A stretch of 63,926 nt of DNA, the filler included, from Chrysochromulina tobinii (Eukaryota): NCBI GenBank assembly GCA_001275005.1. It is 6 parts of 6 records of this genome, joined end to end, with 100 filler letters (N's around TTAATTAATTAA, not from the genome) between each part and the next. Parts side by side here need not be neighbours in the genome. Positions count along the whole stretch, not along the records: positions 30,996 to 50,129 come from JWZX01000903.1; 5 more parts are not named here. The stretch is one strand, 5' to 3'. Positions 612 to 62,464 of this stretch are shown in pieces. A program made the position numbers and the translations under genes. The first letter of the stretch is position 1; each line of letters starts with the position of its first letter. The notes beneath the pieces were generated by a model that ran no database searches, was not told the origin of the DNA, and saw only the letters and a program-made list of their open reading frames with translations.

Positions 612-3600
612 TTATGGGACGAGGGCCAGGGCGACAGGGCGACGGGCGGCGTGTGCCCCCACCTGCTTGTTCTGTTCTGACGAAACTTGGTCGGGCATGT
701 TGCCCAGCTCGAGGAGGATGGCGGTCAGCGGGTTCTCCGAGGAGGAGACGACTTCCGAGTGGTGCCGGTAGAGGACAGAGTGGACCAGGTAGAGCGAGTT
801 GAGCTCAAAGGCGCGCGTGGGCGTGCGAGACTCCGTCGACTCCATGTACACGGTGATGCGCCGTTGCTCATCGAGCTCGGGCACGTCGGCTAGGTTTGAG
901 TAGAACTGCTTCATGAGCTCGGTGGAGACCTTGATTTTGGCAGAGAGTTCCAACATCCAAGGCTCGGCGTTGTCGTCAAAGTGGCGCAGGCAGCCAACCG
1001 CCTTGAGTGACGTGGCAATCCGGAGCAGATTGCGCTTCATCGCAGCCGTTGGGCGCGATGAAGCGGAGCACAACTCGAATGCTTCGGGCTGGATGATCGC
1101 AGGGCATAGGTACGTGGTGAAGACGAAGTTGGCCACGCCAGCCATCCTTTGCTCGTCCGTCGCTTTGGGGAAACGATCCTGCGTCATCTCGTACACCCTT
1201 TTGGCGAGCACGCGGATGCCGTACGGCAGCTGGTTGCGGCACGCGATCACGCGCGTCAGGAAGAGCTCGACAATCTCGACGAGCGTCTTCACCCGTGGCT
1301 GAATGATCTCGCGCACTTCGCGGAACTGCCAGGCCTCCTTGGAACTGAGCTTCTCTGGCAGATCTTCGCCGATCTTATGGCGGAGTACCTGGGCGCATGC
1401 CTGGTACACGCGCGCCGGGTCGATCTCGAGGTCGAGAGATTTGCGCGAGAGCACCGCCGCGAGCGGCTTGAAGAGCATGTCCTTGAGCGCCTCGATGTTG
1501 GGGCCGCGGCGCGTGTACGCGGCCATGAGCTTCGTCACGTAGTTGACGGAGGCAAGAATCTGTCGCGGCTCCTGCACGGAGGCCATGTCTTCGTTCGTCG
1601 CGTGGATGATGAGCGAGAGGATGTAGTACTCGTCTCGCGCCTTGTAGTGGTTCGAGTAGATGCGGTCGCAGATGATCGCCACGAGGCGGTTGGTCTCGTC
1701 ATTCTCGCTCTTGCCAAGCGCGGCCTCCGATTCCTCCACCTTCTTGAGCATCACGGACAGGTTAGCCGGCTCCAGGTACAGCACTGAGATCATCCGCTCG
1801 TAGAGCCCCTTGGGGAACCCGGAGGACTTGATGCCGGGCATGAGCTCGCGGTGCTGGTACGCGTTGTACCGGCACAGTGTCTCGTGCACCGTCTTGTGGT
1901 TCGCAAGGACGAGCTGCACCTTATTCTCGATCTCGAGGCACGCCGCCTCTGCCGCTTCGTTGATGACCACCGCCTCATCGAGCTTTGCCTTGAGCTGCTC
2001 GATCTGCTTCTGCTCGTTCTCGATCACTTCGGCGACATTGTAAGTCTGCGACTTGACCAGCTGCTGAAGCACGTCGAGGGAAGGCCGGATGGCACGCCCG
2101 GCCATCGCCACCGCCATCACTGTCGAGATCGTCGTCGAGTCGGCTTGCTCTCCGCTCGAGGGTTCCCCACTGCCAGTCGCGAGCGCTCCGGAGCCACCGC
2201 CTGAGTCGACCACCTGGGCCGCGCGCACCGCGACAGTCTGCGAGTCGTCGAGGATCTTTTGTGCCGTGGCCGCGTCGATGTCGGTCCCATGCAGTCGTCG
2301 AATCATCTCGGGGGTCAGGAGACGGGAAGGCTCATCGTCTCGTGACACGCTGGTCAGAGATGAGGAGCTCAGCTCAACAACCTCGAGGGGCAGGTCCTGC
2401 TCATCGATCCTGCCCGTGCCGAGGCGCGAGTTGGCGCCGTTGCCCCAGGTGAACACCTGAGGAGGGAGGCAATCAACAAGAACTCAGAGATGCGATTGCA
2501 TAGGCACTCACTCAGAGAGGCAAGCAGCAGAGATGCATCGCAAGGGTGCACTCAGAGAGGCACTCAGCACTCACCTTCGCCATGCCAGCCTCTTCCGAGG
2601 CGCCAAGAGCGACGGCTCCGGAATGGTTGGCGCCACACGCGACATGGATCACCTTTTGCCCTTCGAGATCATGGATGGGGGTGGGGGTGAGTCGAGGATC
2701 CAGCCCGCCGACGCCGAGCTGGCCGTAGTGCCCCGCTCCCCACGCATACACGCGCATCCGATCCTTGGTCGCTGCGAGGGAGTGCGCCTCGCCCGCCGCG
2801 ATCGCGCCGATCTCGATGCCCTGCAGGTGCTGGATCGCCTTGGGCGCGTTACGGTTCTCGAGGTCACCATGACCAAGCTGACCCCGCTCGCCGATGCCCC
2901 AAGTGTACAGGTCACCCGTCTGCGTGAGCGCCATCGTGTGGAAGGAGCCGCAACAGATCTCCTTGACCATCTTGCGCCGGAGGAGACGGATCTCTGTCGG
3001 CACGAGCCGATTCTGATCGTCGGAAAGTCCGAGCTTACCCTTGAATCCTGAGCCCCACGCGAGGACCTCGTAGCCAGCACACAGCGCCACCGAGTGGGCA
3101 TAGGCGCATGCAACCATGACGACCTTCTTGGCGTCGAGCGGCACCAGGCGCGGCGTGGTCTCATCCTCCGGCTCGCCGAGCCCGAGCTTGCCAAATGAGC
3201 CGCTGCCCCAGGTATACAGCCGACCGTCCGACGTGACGGCAGCCGAATGCTCTTCGCCCGCAGCCGCGTGAATGATTTGGCAGTGCCCCTTGAGAGTAGC
3301 GATGATGCGCGGCTCCTCGATCTTGCTCTGGTCGCCATGGCCGAGCCGGCCGAGCGTGCCATCGCCCCACGAGTAGATGGTGCCGTCGGAGGTCACTGCG
3401 AGTACGTGCCGTACCCCCGCAGCGAGCTGGATGACCGGCTTACGATGGCCTCCGAGAGAGAGGACGCGCATGGGCCTAGAGACCTCACGCTCGTCGAGAC
3501 GCGACAGGTCGTGGCCCGTGGCGCCGTAACGGCCATCGCCCCAAGTGTACACGTCACCTTGGTCCGACAGGGCCACCGAGTAGAAGCCGCCGAAACACAG

Positions 3601-30895: not shown

Positions 30896-30995
30896 NNNNN
30901 NNNNNNNNNNNNNNNNNNNNNNNNNNNNNNNNNNNNNNNTTAATTAATTAANNNNNNNNNNNNNNNNNNNNNNNNNNNNNNNNNNNNNNNNNNNN
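30896..30995. other. Artificial contig spacer (N-run with TTAATTAATTAA six-frame stop linker)
   Basis: Exactly 100 nt, same layout at five positions. Confidence 0.98.
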
Positions 30996-32367: not shown

Positions 32368-35300
32368 ATGGCCGACTTCCCGCGACGTCCCGAATCGCCT
32401 GGACCGACACGCGAGGAAGTGGGCTCCGAGTATTGGGATCCGCCCTGCCGCGTCTGCAAGGTGGTCGACGACGAAGCCAACGTCCTGTGCGAGCTGTGCA
32501 ACGACGCGTACCACCTCGCTTGCATCGATAAGATCAACAAGCCGCCGCTGCCGCGGTCGCCAGAAGACGACGAGTGGTTCTGCCGCGCGTGCGTCAAGCG
32601 CGGCGTGCCCGAGGTCATCCTGGACCGCGTCGGCCGCGACTCGTCGGCGCACTACCTCGTCCAGTGGCTCGGCAAGCCCAAGTGGGACGTGTCATGGGAG
32701 CACGCCAAGATCCTCGACACGGCCTGGAGCCGCAAGCTCATCAGCAAGTACGTGGTCGAGACGGAGCCCGCCCGCAAGGGCATATCGCCCATCCTGCCGC
32801 CGTGCCACGAGCTCGTCGACCTGCGCCGCTCGCACGCCGACGCCGCCGCCAGCGCGGCCGCCGCGTGCCCGACGTCGCCGTACGTCTCGGAGCCGGCACC
32901 GGGCGGCGCTGGCCGCGGGCGTGGCACTCCTGCAGGCGCTGCGCGCCGTGTGCCTGCGCGTGCCCGAGTCCCATCCGCTCGGTGCGCTCGCCGCCGCCGC
33001 CGCGCGCCTCGCGCGGCTGCATCGGCATCCGCGCTGCGCCTCACTCGCACAGTGGTCAACGGCCGCCGGGGAGTCGCGCGCCGCGGCGGGCATGGCCATC
33101 GCGCGCGCCGTCGCCGCACTCAAGCCGCTGAGCACCCTCGCCAACACGCTGGGCAAGCGCGGCACTGCCAAGCGCCTCGCTGCCTTGCAATCCGCCGCCG
33201 CCGAGGCCGCGCACGCTCCATCCACTGATGAGGCTGCCATATTAGGCAAGCCGACCGAGGAGCTCGCGCAGGCGAGCGGCGGCAAGGCGGCGAGACTAGG
33301 CCGCGGCAAGGCGGCGGCCGGGGGCACCGCGACGAGCGGCGGCAAGGCGGTAAGCCTACCGGTAGGTAAGAAGCGCGCCGGCTCGCCGGAGATCGCCGGA
33401 GATCGCTCGTCGGAGAGTCGAGTGGAGGGCAGTGCGCCGGCGGCGGTGCGCCTCAGGTTAGTGGGCGAGGCACCGCTCACACTCGCCTCCGCGTCCGCCG
33501 CCGCTAGTCGCGCCGCCGCCCTCCCCTGCGCCGCCTCCCTGGCGAACTCTTCCGCGGCGGCCGCGGCGGCCGCGGTGGCCGCGGTGGCACTGCACGTGGG
33601 TGGCACCGGCGCGAGCCACGTGAACGGCCCGACGTACGAGCAGCTCGCCGAGCTGCGGGAGCTGTGCTCGCGCCGACCGGCACCGGCCCATGTGCTCTCG
33701 CCGGTGGCTTTGGTCCTCGGACGCGCCCTGAGTGTCGCAGAGCATGCGGAGTGGGGTGTAACGACGGCGCCCGCGCTCTGTGCGGCCGAGGCGCTGCGCA
33801 CGCTGCTCACGGAGCTCATGGCCTTCCTCGGACCGTTACCACCAGCGGCGGCCTCGGAGGATACCCTCGCCGCCGCCAAGGCTGCATGCACGCCCAATGC
33901 CTATCGCTCCTTTCTCATGCATCTGAAGGAGCAGCGGGCCGGAGGCGGCGGCAATGATGCCATGGGCGACGCCGCGACGCTTGTAGTGCCGCGCGAGGCA
34001 GCCGCCGCAGCCGCCGCGTTCGTACCGAGCGCCGTTCCGAGCGCCGTTCCGAGCGCCCTTCGCACCCTTTTTGTGGCGCCACGCGAGGCGGCCGCCGCGG
34101 CCGACGCGTTCGCCGCGCTCGCGCCGAGCGCCCTTCGCACCCTCGGTGATCGCGCCAATGCCGAGTACCGCTCCCGGCTCGGTTCCCTCCCCAATGATCT
34201 CCTCGGGCTCGAGCGCCGTGGCGGCGGCGGCGGCGGGCGTGGCGGCGAGCGTGGCGGTGGCCCGTGCAGCGTTTGCCGCGAGTCGGACCGGCGGGACTGC
34301 CTCATCTGCCACCGGTGCGACCAACTCACGCATCTCATGTGCTTCTTCCCGCCAAAGGTCTCAGCCGACGAGGCGGACGAGGCGCACTGGACGTGCGACA
34401 TCTGCTCAGCGAAATTGCCGCCGCCGCTCGCGATGCCCAAGCAAGGAGATGAGCTCGAAGCCGAGGTGGCCGAGCCGGAGGGCGGGGCACCCGTGTGGAA
34501 GCGTGCTATCGTGCTCAAGGTGCTCCCGCGCGCCACCTTCCGGCTCATGATCAACCCCGACGAGGAGGACGACTTCATCGAGGAGTATGGGATGCACGAA
34601 CTCAACAAGGAGTGGCGATGGCCGCAGGCCGCCCTTGCGGCCAATGCGGCCGCCCGCGCCGCAGCCGAGCAGTGCGCAGCTTCCGTCGCCGAGAAGCAAG
34701 CGGCCGAGAAGGCGGCGCTCGTTGCGGACCAAGAGAGCGCGCCATCGGATCCTCTCCTCTTGGAGCTCGTCAAACAGTTCTACGACGAAGGGTTCTGTGT
34801 GCTCAAAGACGGGTTGAGCGCAGATCAGGTGGACGCGTGCGACATGGTCGTCGATCGCGGCTACAAGCAGTACATGCACTGCGTCAAGACCCTCGAGCTG
34901 CAGGAGAGGCTGAGCGAGGTGGGCTTCATGGAGATCAAGAAGCGCTCCGCCTGATTGCCTCCCTCATTGCACCTGATTGCCACCCTCATCAGGTGGGCTT
35001 CATGGAGATCAAGATGCGCTCCGCCGGGAGATACGATCTGCAACTGCCCGAGCTCTCGACGCCCGCCTTCTCGTTTGTCACCCATGACGCCCCCTGGATG
35101 GCGCTTGTGCATGCATTGCTCGGCAAGGACGCGGTGAGTGCCCCCCCACCTGCCATGGAAGAGTCCCTGATTGCTGGACGATGTGCCACGTCACCGACGC
35201 TTGATTGCTGGACGATGTGCCACGTCACCGACGCTTGATTCTGGACGATGTGCCACGTCACCGACGCTTGAAGCGCTCGCGGTGACGCCCGTGGCGATGC

Positions 35301-35948
35301 TCGCAGGTCCTCACACACTTTGGCTGCATGCTCTCTTTCCCGGGCTCCGCCACACAGCCTTGGCACTCGGACGGTCCCCACATCAGGGGCTGCGGCGAGG
35401 CGGCGCATCGAGTTGGATACGGGATGGCTGGTGCCCCAGAACCGGACGCCAAGTTCAACCCCAACGGCTTTCATGCTGGCAAGGAGGCGGCGGCCGCTAA
35501 CGCCGCGGCCCCTGGGCGCAAGGACAAGGGGAGCGTCGTCCCGGGCACTCCTGCGGACGATGAGGAGGCGGAGGCGGAGGGGGCTCCCGGAGTGCAGCCC
35601 TTCTACGCGCCCGTACATGCCCTCAATGTGTTCGTACCTTTGGTCGATCTCAGCGAGGATAGGGGCCCGACGGAGTTCGTGCCAGGATCTCACCGCGACT
35701 ACGACGTTGACGCGCCGAGCAAGAAAGAGACCCTCCTCAAAGGGCAGGCGCTGCTATTCGACTACCGCCTCAAGCACCGCGGGCTGGGGAACAACTCGAC
35801 GACCGAGAGGCCGCTCCTCTACATCACCTACGCACGTCCCTTTTGGGTCGACGTGGACAACTTTGACAAGGCGCGCTACGAGAATCTGCCCGCGTGCAAA
35901 GAGTTCATGTCGCGCGAGGAGCGCTTACTAAAGCGCCAGCGCGGCTGA
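32368..35948 (+). CDS. PHD finger - chromodomain - Ala-rich helical region - PHD finger - Tudor/Agenet-like - PhyH-family 2OG-Fe(II) dioxygenase. Introns 34919-34992 and 35134-35306; unresolved frame change near 32860-32935
   Basis: CRVC..CELCNDAYHLAC..WFCRAC; EVILDR..YLVQWLG..SWE; CSVC..CHRC..HLMC..WTCDIC; GDELEAEV..WKRAIV; FYDEGFCVL..QPWHSDG..LNVFVPLVD..GPTEFVPGSH..LFDYRLKHRGLGN..RPLLY. Confidence 0.8.
34919..34992 (+). other. 74-nt intron = 33-nt copy of the downstream exon start + two TGATTGCC(T/A)CCCTCAT units + CAG
   Basis: 34919-34951 matches 34993-35025 at 32/33. The unspliced frame stops at 34954; splicing gives ERLSE-VGFMEIKMRSAGRYDL. Confidence 0.9.
35134..35306 (+). other. 173-nt intron containing three tandem ~33-bp units (TGATT(G)CTGGACGATGTGCCACGTCACCGACGCT)
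   Basis: GCG|GTGAGT...CGCAG|GTCCTC, phase 0; repeats at about 35168-35270. Confidence 0.85.
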
Positions 35949-36550
35949 GAGCGGCTGAGCAAGAGATCTCTTGTCGACGGGTGTGGGGCAACGGAGCTAC
36001 CGGCTTCCGGCCACGGGGGGAGGAAGCCCCAAGGGCCGCCTCGCGCAAGTCCCACGGTCTCAGGCAACGAGGGGTGCAGAGCCTAGAGCCCGGCCCGAAT
36101 GCAGGGACTCTGCTAAGCGGCGTGCCGAAGGTATGCACAGAGTGCATCCTTTTCCAGGGAGGAGTCGCTCTGAGGCCGTGCGACAGTAGCGGAGTCCGTT
36201 GCCCTGCGCGAGGGGCGGGCTGGGACCTGGGTGCTGTGGCGGAGCGGTTGGCGGCGTTGCTTCCCGTCCTGAAAGAGGATCTTGTTGATGTCGTGTGCGG
36301 TGCACGTGCGGCGATGCATATATCAATTATTCTTTGCATATATTAATTAATACGACGGAGTAGCCGGCCGGAGCTCAGTACCCGTCGCTTTGTTCGTTCG
36401 GGTTCGTGGGCGGCATGCGATTTCCTGTGCGTTCTTGTGCCGGTCAACCATCGCGTTCCTGTGCCGCACCCGCTCTCGGTCGCGAGCGATGAAAGAACCG
36501 AGCGCAACTGCTATGCCTAGTTGCTACGCGCGCCTCGCGTGACGACAAGT

Positions 36551-36635
36551 ACAGCCAAAGGGGAGGCTCCGGGCTCCTTCGGTCTCGGCGGTTACAGCCA
36601 AAGGGGAGGCTCCGGGCTCGTTTGGTCTCGGCGGT
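36551..36635. repeat. 43-bp tandem duplication just 3' of the CRAL-TRIO gene stop codon
   Basis: ACAGCCAAAGGGGAGGCTCCGGGCTC(C/G)TT(C/T)GGTCTCGGCGGT occurs twice. Confidence 0.9.
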
Positions 36636-36636
36636 C

Positions 36637-37838
36637 TCACTTCTTAAGCTGGGTAGGGAGCAGCGTGGGCTCTATCAGCCCTGGCTTGCGATCGATCCAC
36701 GCGATGGCCTTCTCCACGTTGTCTACATTCGAGGGCAGGAAGAAGGTCTTCGAAAGTATCTCCGCATCGAGGAGCGGCGAGACGATCTTCCACACGGGAT
36801 GGAAATAGGGCGGCACGTTAATGAAGGCGGCAATCCCAAGCCGACCCGGGTAGTGATTACGGAGGACATCAATGCACTCCTTGATCTGTGGGAGCGTGGT
36901 CGGGCGGAAGCCCGTCATGTCAAGCACGATGCACGCGCGCTGCACGCGCCGCCCTCGGCCACGTAGCGGCATGCGACGAATGTAATGCTCCATTTGGTAA
37001 GCGACGTGCCTGATGAGGGAGGCCATCGGAGGCACTCAGTAGCCATCAGGGGCGCACACAGACTCATGTCATCCTCCGTTTGGCAAGCGACGTACCGGAT
37101 TCGTTCCTCATGGGGCACGTGCTCGGGGTGCCATGCCTTCGCTAGAAAGTAGGTGAGGGGCATGCCGTTGCGCGTGTACCGCCACTGCTGCATCGTAGGG
37201 CGGGTGTGTGGCGGGTGCAATTCGAGCTTCCCGCTCCGCCAGCGCCTTCGGATCGCGCTGGCGGCGCTGGCGGCGCTGGCGGCGCTGGCGGCGCTGGCGG
37301 CGCTGCCAGTGCTGCCGGTGCTGCCGGTGCTGCCGGTGCTGCTGCTGACGCTGCTGACGCTGCTGCTGACGCCGCTACTGCTGCTACTAATGCTATCGCT
37401 GCTAGTGCCGGGCCTGATGCCGCAGGTGACGAGGGCCTCCTCCAGCGTCGCCTCTGTCTTCTGACCATTGGCGGGAGTCATCATCACGACCCAGCCCCGC
37501 TGCGAGCATGCGATGGGCATGTCGCTCGGCTTGAGCAAGCGTGGTTTGTACTTGGCGCGCCACACGAAATCCCTTCGGAGGAGCTTCGCTGCGCGCTCGG
37601 CGTCCCATTCGCATACGGCCAGGAACCGAGCGTACGTATCTGCCGTCACGCGCTCGCCCAGCTTGAAGACTGGCGGCGGTGGCACGAGGCGGCGGAGTTC
37701 GGCAATCGCCCGATGGCGCTGATCGGTGCTCACGTGTGGCGTTGAGCGCTGCAGCACGGTGCGTCGAGTGAGCAGTGCTAGCACCAGCGCGGCGCGAAGC
37801 GGGTGTTTCCACACGATTGCCGGCAGCGACAGGCGCAT
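36637..37838 (-). CDS. CRAL-TRIO/Sec14-like lipid-binding protein; intron 37010-37095
   Basis: YARFLAVCEWDAERA..DFVWR (CRAL-TRIO N domain), IVLDMTGF, LRNHYPGRLGIAAFINVPPYFHPVWKIVSPLLD. Confidence 0.88.
37010..37095 (-). other. 86-nt intron = 30-nt degenerate copy of the downstream exon start + CTGA(T/G)-type filler ending GATGGCCTCCCTCATCAG
   Basis: GTACGTCGCTTGCCAAACGGAGGATGACAT versus exon GCACGTCGCTTACCAAATGGAGCATTACAT (25/30). Splicing joins the two ORFs as ERIR-HVAYQMEHY. Confidence 0.88.
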
Positions 37839-50129: not shown

Positions 50130-50229
50130 NNNNNNNNNNNNNNNNNNNNNNNNNNNNNNNNNNNNNNNNNNNNTTAATTAATTAANNNNNNNNNNNNNNN
50201 NNNNNNNNNNNNNNNNNNNNNNNNNNNNN
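50130..50229. other. Artificial contig spacer
   Basis: N-run with TTAATTAATTAA. Confidence 0.98.
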
Positions 50230-52520: not shown

Positions 52521-53391
52521 GGTAGCACTCTGGACATACTGTGTGGGCCGTCGCGTCGTCGTAGGCGCCCCGCCGCCCTTTTTTCTCGTCCCTCGGCGTC
52601 CCTCCCCTTGTTCGCGCGCGCACATCGGGAGCCGATGCTGCCCTCGATGCATCAGCCGGAGGTGGCACCTACGGCCACGATGTGGATGCACCTGGGCGAT
52701 CTCACCGGCGAGATTGAGCACTACGAGCATGCGTGGACCCTCTCCAACCAGCATTTCGCGCGCGCAAAGCTCAAGCTCGGCTCGAAAGCAACGAACCTAG
52801 AGCAATGGGAAGAGGCCCGTATAGAAGGAGCCAGCACGCATCCAGCAGGCGGCTTGGCCACATCCAGCTGCGGCCAAGCCAGTGGCCAAGCCGCATGCTG
52901 GCATCAGAATGCCGACGCAGATCATCAGCGTCGGCAGCAGCAGCTACAGCAGCAGCGGTGGGCGCGGGAAGATAGGCCCATGGCCAGCAGCTGGCATTTT
53001 GCCAGCGGGTCTTATGTTGGCACAGGCGACCCCGGCCTTTAACCGCCGAAACCGCCACCTCAGACCGCCGACCTTGTGAACCCTCAGCAAGTGTAACCTC
53101 AGCAATCAGCACATTCAGACCTCAGTACAGCCATCAGCCCGTGCCGTCTCTCCCATGTTCACCACCGCCGCCGTTGCCTCCACCACCTTCACCACCGCCC
53201 TCACCTCCTCCGCCAAGCCCACCGCCATCATCACCGCCGCCCTCGCCGCCGCCATCGCCGCCGCCGCCATCGCCGCCGCCTCCGTCACCGCCACCACCTT
53301 CACCTCCTCCGTCGCCAGCACCTCCATCGCCTCTGGCGGCGGGGCGCCTACGACGACGCGACGGCCCACACAGTATGTCTAGAGTGCTACC
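52521..53391. mobile_element. Putative non-autonomous TIR (Pack/fold-back-like) element with 57-bp TIRs, carrying a TPR-gene fragment and a Pro-rich fragment
   Basis: 52521-52577 and 53335-53391 are reverse complements at 56/57 (GGTAGCACTCTRGACATACTGTGTGGGCCGTCGCGTCGTCGTAGGCGCCCCGCCGCC). No TSD or transposase seen. Confidence 0.55.
52630..52830 (+). pseudogene. TPR-gene fragment resembling TTC27/Emw1 (second copy at about 54085-54290, minus strand)
   Basis: PTATMWMHLGDLTGEIEHYEHAWTLSNQHFARAKLKLG resembles, from memory, the TTC27 segment LWCxLGDxxxDxxxYEKAWExSxxRxARA. Confidence 0.5.
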
Positions 53392-53673
53392 GCCGGCTTC
53401 ACCACCAAGAAAGGGACGATTCGAGGATACGTATCTAAGGGTGGGTATGGTGATTTTTGTTTTTGACACCCATCATGCAAACAACATACTCACTGATTCT
53501 CCAGACACCAGAGCATGGGGATAGTCTCTCTCAGACGCACTCACCGCTGGTCGCCGTTACGCAGCATTCCCGGTTCCTAGCGCTTTCGTCGCTCTTCGTG
53601 CGAGTCAAAGTGAACCATAAATGGTCGCGAAAAGCCTTTCGTGCTCGTTCGAACCGGTTCGAAATGTCATGCG

Positions 53674-54395
53674 TAGCACTCTAGCTGGTGTGGGCCGTCG
53701 CGTCGTCGTAGGCGCCCCGCCGCCCTTTTCTCTGCGTCCCTCGGCGTCCCTCGAAGTCCCTAGAGACGGCACGGGCTGATGGCTGTACTGAGGTCTGAAT
53801 GTGCTGATTGCTGAGGTTACACTTGCTGAGGGTTCACAAGGTCGGCGGTCTGAGGTGGCGGTTTCGGCGGTTAAAGGCCGGGGTCGCCTGTGCCAACATA
53901 AGACCCCATGGCAAAATGCCAGCTGCTGGCCATGGGCCTATCTTCCCGCGCCCACCGCTGCTGCTGTAGCTGCTGCTGCCGACGCTGATGATCTGCGTCG
54001 GCATTCTGATGCCAGCATGCGGCTTGGCCAGTGGCTTGGCCGCAGCTGGATGTGGCCAAGCCGCCTGCTGGATGCGTGCTGGCTCCTTCTGTACGGGCCT
54101 CCTCCCACTGCTCTAGGCTCTTTGCTTTCGAGCAGAGCTTGAGCTTTGCGCGCGCGAGATGCTGGTTGGAGAGGGTCCACGCATGCTCGTAGTGCTCAAT
54201 CCCGCCAATGACACTGCCTAGGTGCATCCACATCGTGGCCGTAGGTGCCGCCTCGAGCAAATGCATCGAGGGCAGCTTCGGCTCCCGATGTGCGAGCGCG
54301 AACAAGGGACTTCGAGGGACGCCGAGGGACGCAGAAAAAGGGCGGCGGGGCGCCTACGACGACGCGACGGCCCACAGTTTGTCCAGAGTGCTACC
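53674..54395. mobile_element. Second TIR-bounded unit (about 88-bp TIRs, 53674-53761 and 54305-54395) with an inverted copy of the same cargo
   Basis: Same GTAGCACTCT...GTGGGCCGTCGCGTCGTCGTAGGCGCCCCGCCGCC terminus at both ends, extended by CCCTCGGCGTCCCTCGAAGTCCCT. Confidence 0.5.
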
Positions 54396-54467: not shown

Positions 54468-54567
54468 NNNNNNNNNNNNNNNNNNNNNNNNNNNNNNNNN
54501 NNNNNNNNNNNTTAATTAATTAANNNNNNNNNNNNNNNNNNNNNNNNNNNNNNNNNNNNNNNNNNNN
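54468..54567. other. Artificial contig spacer
   Basis: N-run with TTAATTAATTAA. Confidence 0.98.
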
Positions 54568-58705: not shown

Positions 58706-58805
58706 NNNNNNNNNNNNNNNNNNNNNNNNNNNNNNNNNNNNNNNNNNNNTTAATTAATTAANNNNNNNNNNNNNNNNNNNNNNNNNNNNNNNNNNNNNNN
58801 NNNNN
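58706..58805. other. Artificial contig spacer
   Basis: N-run with TTAATTAATTAA. Confidence 0.98.
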
Positions 58806-62364: not shown

Positions 62365-62464
62365 NNNNNNNNNNNNNNNNNNNNNNNNNNNNNNNNNNNN
62401 NNNNNNNNTTAATTAATTAANNNNNNNNNNNNNNNNNNNNNNNNNNNNNNNNNNNNNNNNNNNN
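62365..62464. other. Artificial contig spacer
   Basis: N-run with TTAATTAATTAA. Confidence 0.98.

Follow-up and report, generated by a model that had tools for sequence, protein, structure and literature searches.

The window analyzed here, a stretch of 63,926 nucleotides from Chrysochromulina tobinii (GenBank assembly GCA_001275005.1), is joined from pieces. The joins, at 30896-30995, 50130-50229, 54468-54567, 58706-58805, and 62365-62464, each consist of two runs of 44 N's around 12 bases, and distant parts of the window therefore need not be neighbors. One piece contains a gene for a CRAL-TRIO domain protein on the minus strand, interrupted by what we call the focal intron, and a PHD + PhyH gene on the plus strand that carries a sister intron of the same family. 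The features are as follows:

37096..37838, minus strand: exon 1 of the CRAL-TRIO gene, open for 247 codons; its start codon is predicted from the open frame and relatives
37096..37100, minus strand: last five exon bases 5' of the donor, matching the last five intron bases at 4/5 positions
37010..37095, minus strand: focal GT-AG spliceosomal intron, 86 nt, phase 2; the frame is restored only on its removal, and RNA contigs support it
37061..37095, minus strand: intronic copy of the exon start, the supplier of the donor (GT now, GC ancestrally); it bears all five substitutions
37010..37060, minus strand: repeat cassette of decayed 10- to 11-nt units of the CTGATGGC/CTGAGTGC type, followed by the 3' end typical of the family, which holds the acceptor AG
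36975..37009, minus strand: exonic copy, the start of exon 2, with conserved codons H-V-A-Y-Q-M-E-H-Y-I
36637..37009, minus strand: exon 2, CRAL-TRIO domain through the stop codon (Pfam CRAL_TRIO, E value 2.6e-18)
34919..34992, plus strand: younger sister intron of the same family in the PHD + PhyH gene, 74 nt

A sequence-only reading of this stretch had claimed that the 86-nt intron starts with a 30-nt copy of the downstream exon. We confirmed that the first 30 nt of the focal intron match the first 30 nt of exon 2 (37009..36980) at 25/30 positions, and found the match to be slightly longer than claimed, extending to 28/35 downstream and, with 4/5 before each junction, to 32/40. The intronic copy opens with GT and the exonic copy with GC. 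The 4/5 match at 37096..37100 is possibly priming microhomology or part of the duplication. The upstream exon ends in CG rather than AG, and about 51 nt of the intron consists of the nonexonic cassette, in which a CTGAY-like unit is the predicted branch site. Exon 1 is open, and no further introns were seen in it. Directly 3' of the stop codon begins a 43-nt tandem duplication (36550-36635).

Retention of the focal intron causes a frameshift, and its removal joins the open exon 1 to the CRAL-TRIO domain. The splice junction predicted by the sequence-only reading is present in the RNA: contigs of runs X16 and X17 omit exactly these 86 nt (CT..AC on the plus strand), and run X15 has no contig spanning the joint. 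A single contig of DNA run X13 covers 35242-37284 with 0 differences and retains the intron, although X13 may be the window's own source and its contig is therefore not independent. The segment 37009-37039 recurs in eight other X13 contigs, which then diverge. Under an independent-base approximation, a match of at least 25/30 has a probability of 2.3e-10 per pair, or about 1e-4 over 500,000 GY..AG pairs, and is thus beyond what chance would give. Among the matches listed, the other high-scoring GY..AG pairs are mostly located in coding tandem repeats.

The sister intron has the same architecture in an unrelated gene. Its copy at 34917-34951 matches 34991-35025 at 34/35 positions, preceding AG included (29/30 in the 30-nt copy itself), its splicing is supported by the same two RNA runs, and the two introns agree at 16 of their last 18 nt, which bears out the near-identity of ends noted earlier. 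We examined the sister site in 16 relative proteins, 15 of which reach it. As judged by protein read-throughs rather than DNA alignments, here and at the focal site, it is empty in 14 of these 15, comprising 13 from a 90% identical lineage and P0020, which is 97% identical; P0011, also 97% identical, has the intron. The next intron of P0020 is nearly the same as that in the window's gene, and its empty site could reflect an exact 24-nt repeat that was collapsed during assembly.

Two further observations come from nearby positions. A third intron at 35134-35306 (plus strand), spliced in X15 and X17, contains three internal 34-nt repeats. At the corresponding position, the 90% identical lineage has an intron whose repeat content is very different, indicating that intron interiors turn over fast. 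Run X17 represents a different strain: 1 to 2% of its letters differ from the window, and at window position 36000 it carries an insertion of 14 nt within the 3' untranslated region of the PhyH gene.

In a set of 10 proteins homologous to exon 2, the residues of the exonic copy at the five differing sites are kept: His at the first codon (9/10), followed by Tyr, Met (9/10), His, and Tyr. The translated intronic copy has Tyr, Cys, Thr, Asp, and Asp at these sites. All five changes on the intronic copy are nonsynonymous. The substitutions thus polarize as the sequence-only reading had expected for most of them, and all five lie on the intronic copy. The His codon (CAC) kept in 9/10 homologs further implies that the duplicated target began with GC. 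The focal donor, which is GT now, was accordingly GC at the time of duplication, and the proposed change from GC to GT gains support from an excess of exon-GC/intron-GT pairs across loci, described below.

We also used homologs to place the gain of the focal intron. Four of the 10 homologs (P0004, P0008, P0009, and P0010) are unbroken at the focal site in protein read-throughs. These four read into other introns, showing that they derive from genomic DNA, and the focal intron was therefore gained after the split from them. These distant CRAL-TRIO relatives have introns at two exon 2 positions, none of which are in the window's gene; either the introns were lost there or they were gained in the relatives. 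A second set comprised 12 proteins of closer relatives, 94 to 99% identical in exon 1, 3 of which end short of the focal site; the intron is present in all 9 that reach it. Their intronic copies have Tyr, Cys, and the first Asp in common with the window and still keep Met, so decay continued after that split. Taken together with the absence of the sister intron from the 90% identical lineage and from one 97% identical relative, these comparisons indicate that the focal intron is older than the intron at 34919-34992, and the earlier view of an independent, older, and more decayed event in an unrelated gene is upheld. Alternatively, recombination between the copies could have removed an intron precisely and left an empty site.

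The recurrence of one architecture in two unrelated genes extends to a large family. We scanned metagenome contigs with a 19-base pattern built from the two intron ends and found that at least 147 loci, which derive from several related genomes and not one, share the family 3' end. The 263 pattern matches reduced to 219 unique ones and then to 118 terminal sites, after exclusion of those that had fewer than 250 upstream or 90 downstream bases or lay within 70 bases of another cassette. At 52/118 terminal sites, the exon start has an upstream copy (score of at least 10), compared with 2/1175 permuted and 1/117 shifted controls. Scores of 6 to 9 were likewise more frequent than in controls, showing that there are also shorter or worn copies. 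When the motif was loosened and gaps were allowed in the alignment, 65/151 clusters exceeded the 99th percentile of the null.

For analysis of the copies we set aside 10 of the 52 sites, where the copy farthest upstream lies behind another cassette. The remaining 42 copies are 9 to 55 nt long (median, 23; the lower bound is set by the score threshold), with 0 to 17% mismatch. The base before the target is G at 35/42 sites; AG precedes 23/42 and RG precedes 26/42, and 7/42 targets have no base in common with AG. At 19/42 sites, the exon upstream has an ending other than AG, so the acceptor AG is borne by the cassette. At the joint between copy and cassette, testable at 26/42 sites, microhomology averages 2.6 nt versus 1.1 nt (P = 4e-4). 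Copy length is inversely related to cassette length (rho = -0.51, P = 0.003, n = 32), and 31/32 introns are at least 65 nt long, which suggests that minimum intron length filters which insertions survive.

The terminal sites are followed by GT (89) or GC (15) in 104/118 cases, relative to backgrounds of 4% and 13%, and this holds for 55/66 sites without a long copy. Exon-GC/intron-GT pairs occur at 3/8 sites, compared with C-to-T changes at 8/323 other C positions (P = 0.0014); the opposite donor case was seen once among 33 exon-GT sites. Sense-strand coding sequence follows 109/118 sites according to a codon model that was correct for 153/170 of its own training pieces. Removal of the intron restores the frame at all 13 informative sites, the other 29/42 being uninformative, and the host genes are unrelated, with diverse Pfam families beside family loci. 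Across loci, the mismatches fall at third (11), second (8), and first (7) codon positions, with 15 nonsynonymous and 11 synonymous; this test is weak, and polarity therefore rests on the homologs of the focal gene.

The inserts themselves have a defined 3' end and a diffuse 5' side. They have in common only their last 20 to 40 bases and a vocabulary of 10- to 11-nt units; the consensus weakens more than about 40 nt away from the AG, and the 5' parts have a median identity of 33%, with at least 80% in only 15/435 pairs. They end in CATCAG, with no poly(A) or simple-repeat 3' tail, although the constant 3' end of terminal sites is partly built into the search pattern. A 5- to 7-bp palindrome lies between a unit and the cassette 3' end, with no fixed 5' end; it was the only inverted repeat found in a search for terminal repeats at both insert ends. 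As a structural RNA signal, the cassette hairpin was no better than shuffles (z scores of 0.40, -1.80, 1.62, and 0.77). Pattern scans of viral contigs gave no match, and no reverse transcriptase or transposase was found in 40 window frames and the 62/229 long locus frames scanned.

Elsewhere in the window, a likely intron at 2457-2574 (minus strand, 118 nt) in an RCC1 + RasGAP gene is predicted to contain a variant of the family cassette; its ends share only AG|GTG, and it is 75% like loci L047/L048 over 115 nt. A MITE-like element at 52850-54063 consists of a 600-bp core flanked by near-perfect inverted repeats of about 300 bp (at least 52850-53149 and 53764-54063). Its arms contain CTGATGGC and CTGATTGC words resembling cassette units; BLAST gave no link to family loci, and we took the resemblance as chance.

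Many loci contain arrays, with more than one cassette in 45/151 clusters of the looser motif set. In 51 multicassette clusters, the number of exon-start bases after the first cassette is 0 to 1 in 23, 2 to 6 in 9, and at least 10 in 19. The first group comprises internal cassettes that end within 0 to 1 nt of the AG (0 nt of return homology in 15/51) and resume in other sequence, often upstream sequence with any first base (L113 and L038). In L147, a later cassette jumps 24 nt back into the upstream exon. These ends suggest that the AG is a mechanical end point and that selection or targeting imposes the GT or GC found where a cassette meets an exon. Of the exact-AG internal ends, about half are 20- to 23-nt unit repeats, which hairpin slippage could also make. 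Arrays of up to seven cassette units occur in L147, L089, and L024, where each internal AG followed by GT is a possible recursive splice site.

The arrays also bear on when long copies form. In at least 6/24 arrays, every exon-start copy sits behind an earlier cassette, and the later of the copies in L134 exceeds the first in length. Loci L024, L062, L087, L094, L116, and L121 directly show duplications that span the 3' junction of an existing intron. Long copies thus also arise locally at existing introns. Since such later duplication resets the clock, the age distribution from duplication divergence that the sequence-only reading proposed is unsafe.

How, then, did the focal intron arise? 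On balance, we favor a reading in which the 3' end of a family intron was copied into a donor-like exon site and some 30 to 35 target bases were duplicated. We hold its parts with different confidence. That an insertion with target duplication made the focal intron is quite likely, and the long duplication was probably already there at its birth. That the template was RNA (an excised family intron, used in target-primed reverse transcription [TPRT]) and not DNA is more tentative, and we would give it not quite even weight. We propose the RNA step because three features, namely an end exactly at the AG, a duplication of variable length, and microhomology on the 5' side, are hallmarks of TPRT.

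In such an event, two offset nicks, or one nick and a template switch, would lie 10 to 55 nt apart. The G of the future donor would prime synthesis along a template whose end is exactly the AG, most likely the RNA of an excised intron copied by a borrowed reverse transcriptase, and the truncated cassette would be joined to the end of the target copy via 2 to 8 nt of microhomology. The cassette would supply the branch site and acceptor AG and the upstream target copy the donor, so that splicing would restore the old mRNA exactly. Thereafter the intronic copy would decay and GC would change to GT, probably under selection. A cassette by itself falls short of intron length, which would probably favor long duplications. 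Intergenic and antisense copies are nearly absent and nearly all copies start with GT or GC, which argues against a freely inserting retroelement and would call for strong targeting. The lack of a poly(A) tail and the failure to find a reverse transcriptase in the 40 window and 62/229 locus frames also speak against the RNA step.

The process that makes these introns is unusual and probably still active. A bolder form of the proposal, which we consider possible but doubtful, is a self-feeding intron factory without a transposon of its own, in which excised family-intron RNA is reverse transcribed into donor-like sites of transcribed genes with long target duplication. The spliceosome would fix the free end of this RNA at the AG, and each new intron would be a further template. 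If this were true, introns could also vanish without trace by recombination between the repeats, and fast, reversible intron turnover would be visible between strains of one species.

Alternatively, the long copy could be a later scar rather than the footprint of an insertion. An earlier intron, gained with a short duplication or simply older, would have undergone tandem duplication over its 3' junction, followed by deletion of the first unit between the two donor-like ends. We regard this as unlikely for the focal intron, though it deserves serious attention: duplications of this kind are directly seen at the six loci listed above, multicassette clusters are common, the sense-strand, in-gene distribution would follow without any targeting, and the first step corresponds to a described case in the potato RdRp gene (PMC4974935). 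However, two or three events per intron would be needed at no less than 44% of sites, and the arrival of the cassette at new positions would be left without explanation. In addition, the sister intron already has a 35-nt copy though it is absent in 90 to 97% identical relatives, and the GT or GC after 55/66 sites lacking a long copy is as expected if the target gave the donor at birth.

Repair templated by DNA, with no RNA step and no element-encoded enzyme, would also yield a cassette beside a target copy. Here a staggered break would be filled while one strand borrowed the 3' junction of another family intron by microhomology, in a polymerase-theta or template-switch type of reaction. The microhomology at the copy/cassette joint fits such a reaction, as do targets that resemble the junction 3' of existing cassettes (G at 35/42 and AG at 23/42) and the failure to find a partner element in the 40 window and 62/229 locus frames; new introns in Daphnia are flanked by footprints of staggered breaks (PMC4202315). 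Nevertheless, we judge this explanation to be quite improbable. At 7/42 sites the target has no base in common with AG, internal cassettes end exactly at the AG without return homology (0 nt in 15/51), and the antisense and intergenic copies predicted at donor-like words are rare. The Daphnia repeats, moreover, are 4 to 12 bp long, with insert sources mostly unknown.

A classical DNA transposon or HUH-type introner (MITE-like or Replitron-like) with decayed ends is very improbable. A donor from target duplication, as in classes from Symbiodinium and Polarella, and a cassette end closed by a 5- to 7-bp palindrome are compatible with such an element, and Replitron-1 makes variable duplications at RG sites (PMC10288648), RG being what precedes 26/42 sites here. 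Against this, the duplication length is not fixed (9 to 55 nt), the hairpin is no better than shuffles, and no 5' end is defined, as the low identity of the 5' parts indicates. Chance similarity or an assembly artifact, for which the many coding tandem repeats in the window might speak, is already refuted by RNA-supported splicing, the family controls, the chance level of about 1e-4, and the presence in relatives of the same intron with its own substitutions.

The origin of new spliceosomal introns is a long-standing open question, and most of the mass sources known so far are DNA transposons whose duplications are short and fixed. The intron class described here is common and consists of a short cassette of splice signals and a long target copy, and its focal member documents the replacement of a GC donor by GT. 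Searches that rely on whole-intron similarity would likely miss this class. Because close relatives show young, old, and empty states and RNA data exist for a cultured source, the mechanism is directly testable.

We class the focal intron and its relatives as an introner-like intron gain that is spliced and combines a cassette with a long target copy. Introner hallmarks found here are exact splicing, occurrence in many unrelated genes, a donor from target duplication, and an empty orthologous site (at the protein level); end-to-end similarity between copies is lacking. Duplications of 9 to 55 nt (median, 23; n = 42) also differ from the fixed 3- to 9-nt target site duplication (TSD) of introners with terminal inverted repeats or of the MITE type. 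Given these results for TSD length, inverted repeats, and end-to-end similarity, we do not class the family as a DNA-transposon introner. A literature search, with most subscription papers outside its scope, gave no description of this intron family.

Non-LTR elements and SINEs that use TPRT are recognized by a variable TSD, a fixed 3' end abutting the TSD, and a truncated 5' end joined by microhomology. The family resembles them in each of these respects, its 3' constancy being partly a product of pattern design, but unlike them it lacks both a poly(A) or simple tail and an element body, hardly occurs in intergenic DNA or in antisense orientation, and has no partner in the 40 window and 62/229 locus frames. 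Non-LTR elements are the source of about 5% of the introners that have been classified (PMC12130899). Replitron-1 of Chlamydomonas likewise has variable-length target duplications, an RG target, a terminal hairpin, and one fuzzy end; unlike the cassettes, Replitron-1 elements are 0.9 to 3.6 kb long with direct terminal repeats and a Rep transposase, and the accessible part of the source reports no intron-making (PMC10288648).

Direct repeats of 4 to 30 bp near intron borders have been described in general (PMC11782384). In Daphnia, neointrons from staggered double-strand breaks (PMC4202315) also have a direct repeat common to the intron end and the adjacent exon, and young introns have secondary internal duplications. 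Unlike their short repeats and AT-rich inserts of mostly unknown source, the introns here have long repeats and one common GC-rich cassette. In potato RdRp, an intron was gained by tandem duplication over an intron-exon boundary, in a report that also describes the AGGT duplication model (PMC4974935). There, as here, the new intron consists of a former exon piece with the donor and an intron 3' end with branch site and acceptor. That single case has its parent intron directly upstream, whereas the focal intron has no upstream parent and its layout is found again in dozens of unrelated genes; an upstream parent is present at a minimum of six arrays elsewhere. The AGGT model itself, in which the whole intron is exon derived and both splice sites come from the duplication, does not fit the focal intron, with its roughly 51 nt of nonexonic sequence and an exon ending in CG.

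Among algal introners, a family from a Chrysochromulina metagenome-assembled genome has the opposite polarity, carrying the donor, with a 4-bp TSD (PMC9860276); in the accessible part of the supplement, two named Chrysochromulina genomes are mentioned nowhere but in the list of surveyed genomes. Introner classes 4/5 and 6/8/10 of Symbiodinium and Polarella bring their own 3' splice site, and their donor is supplied by the TSD (bioRxiv 10.1101/2020.10.14.339549; PMC9860276); such acceptor-carrying introners are also covered in a review (PMC11282704) and in PMC12130899. The family described here is like them in being multicopy and exactly spliced, in drawing its acceptor from the insert and its donor from the target duplication, and in having GY behind the 3' splice site, a strong gene bias, and later conversion of the donor dinucleotide. 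The Symbiodinium and Polarella TSDs are short and fixed (3 to 9 nt) and most of the elements have inverted repeats and end-to-end similarity, whereas the duplication here is long and variable and the insert has an undefined 5' side made of 10- to 11-nt units.
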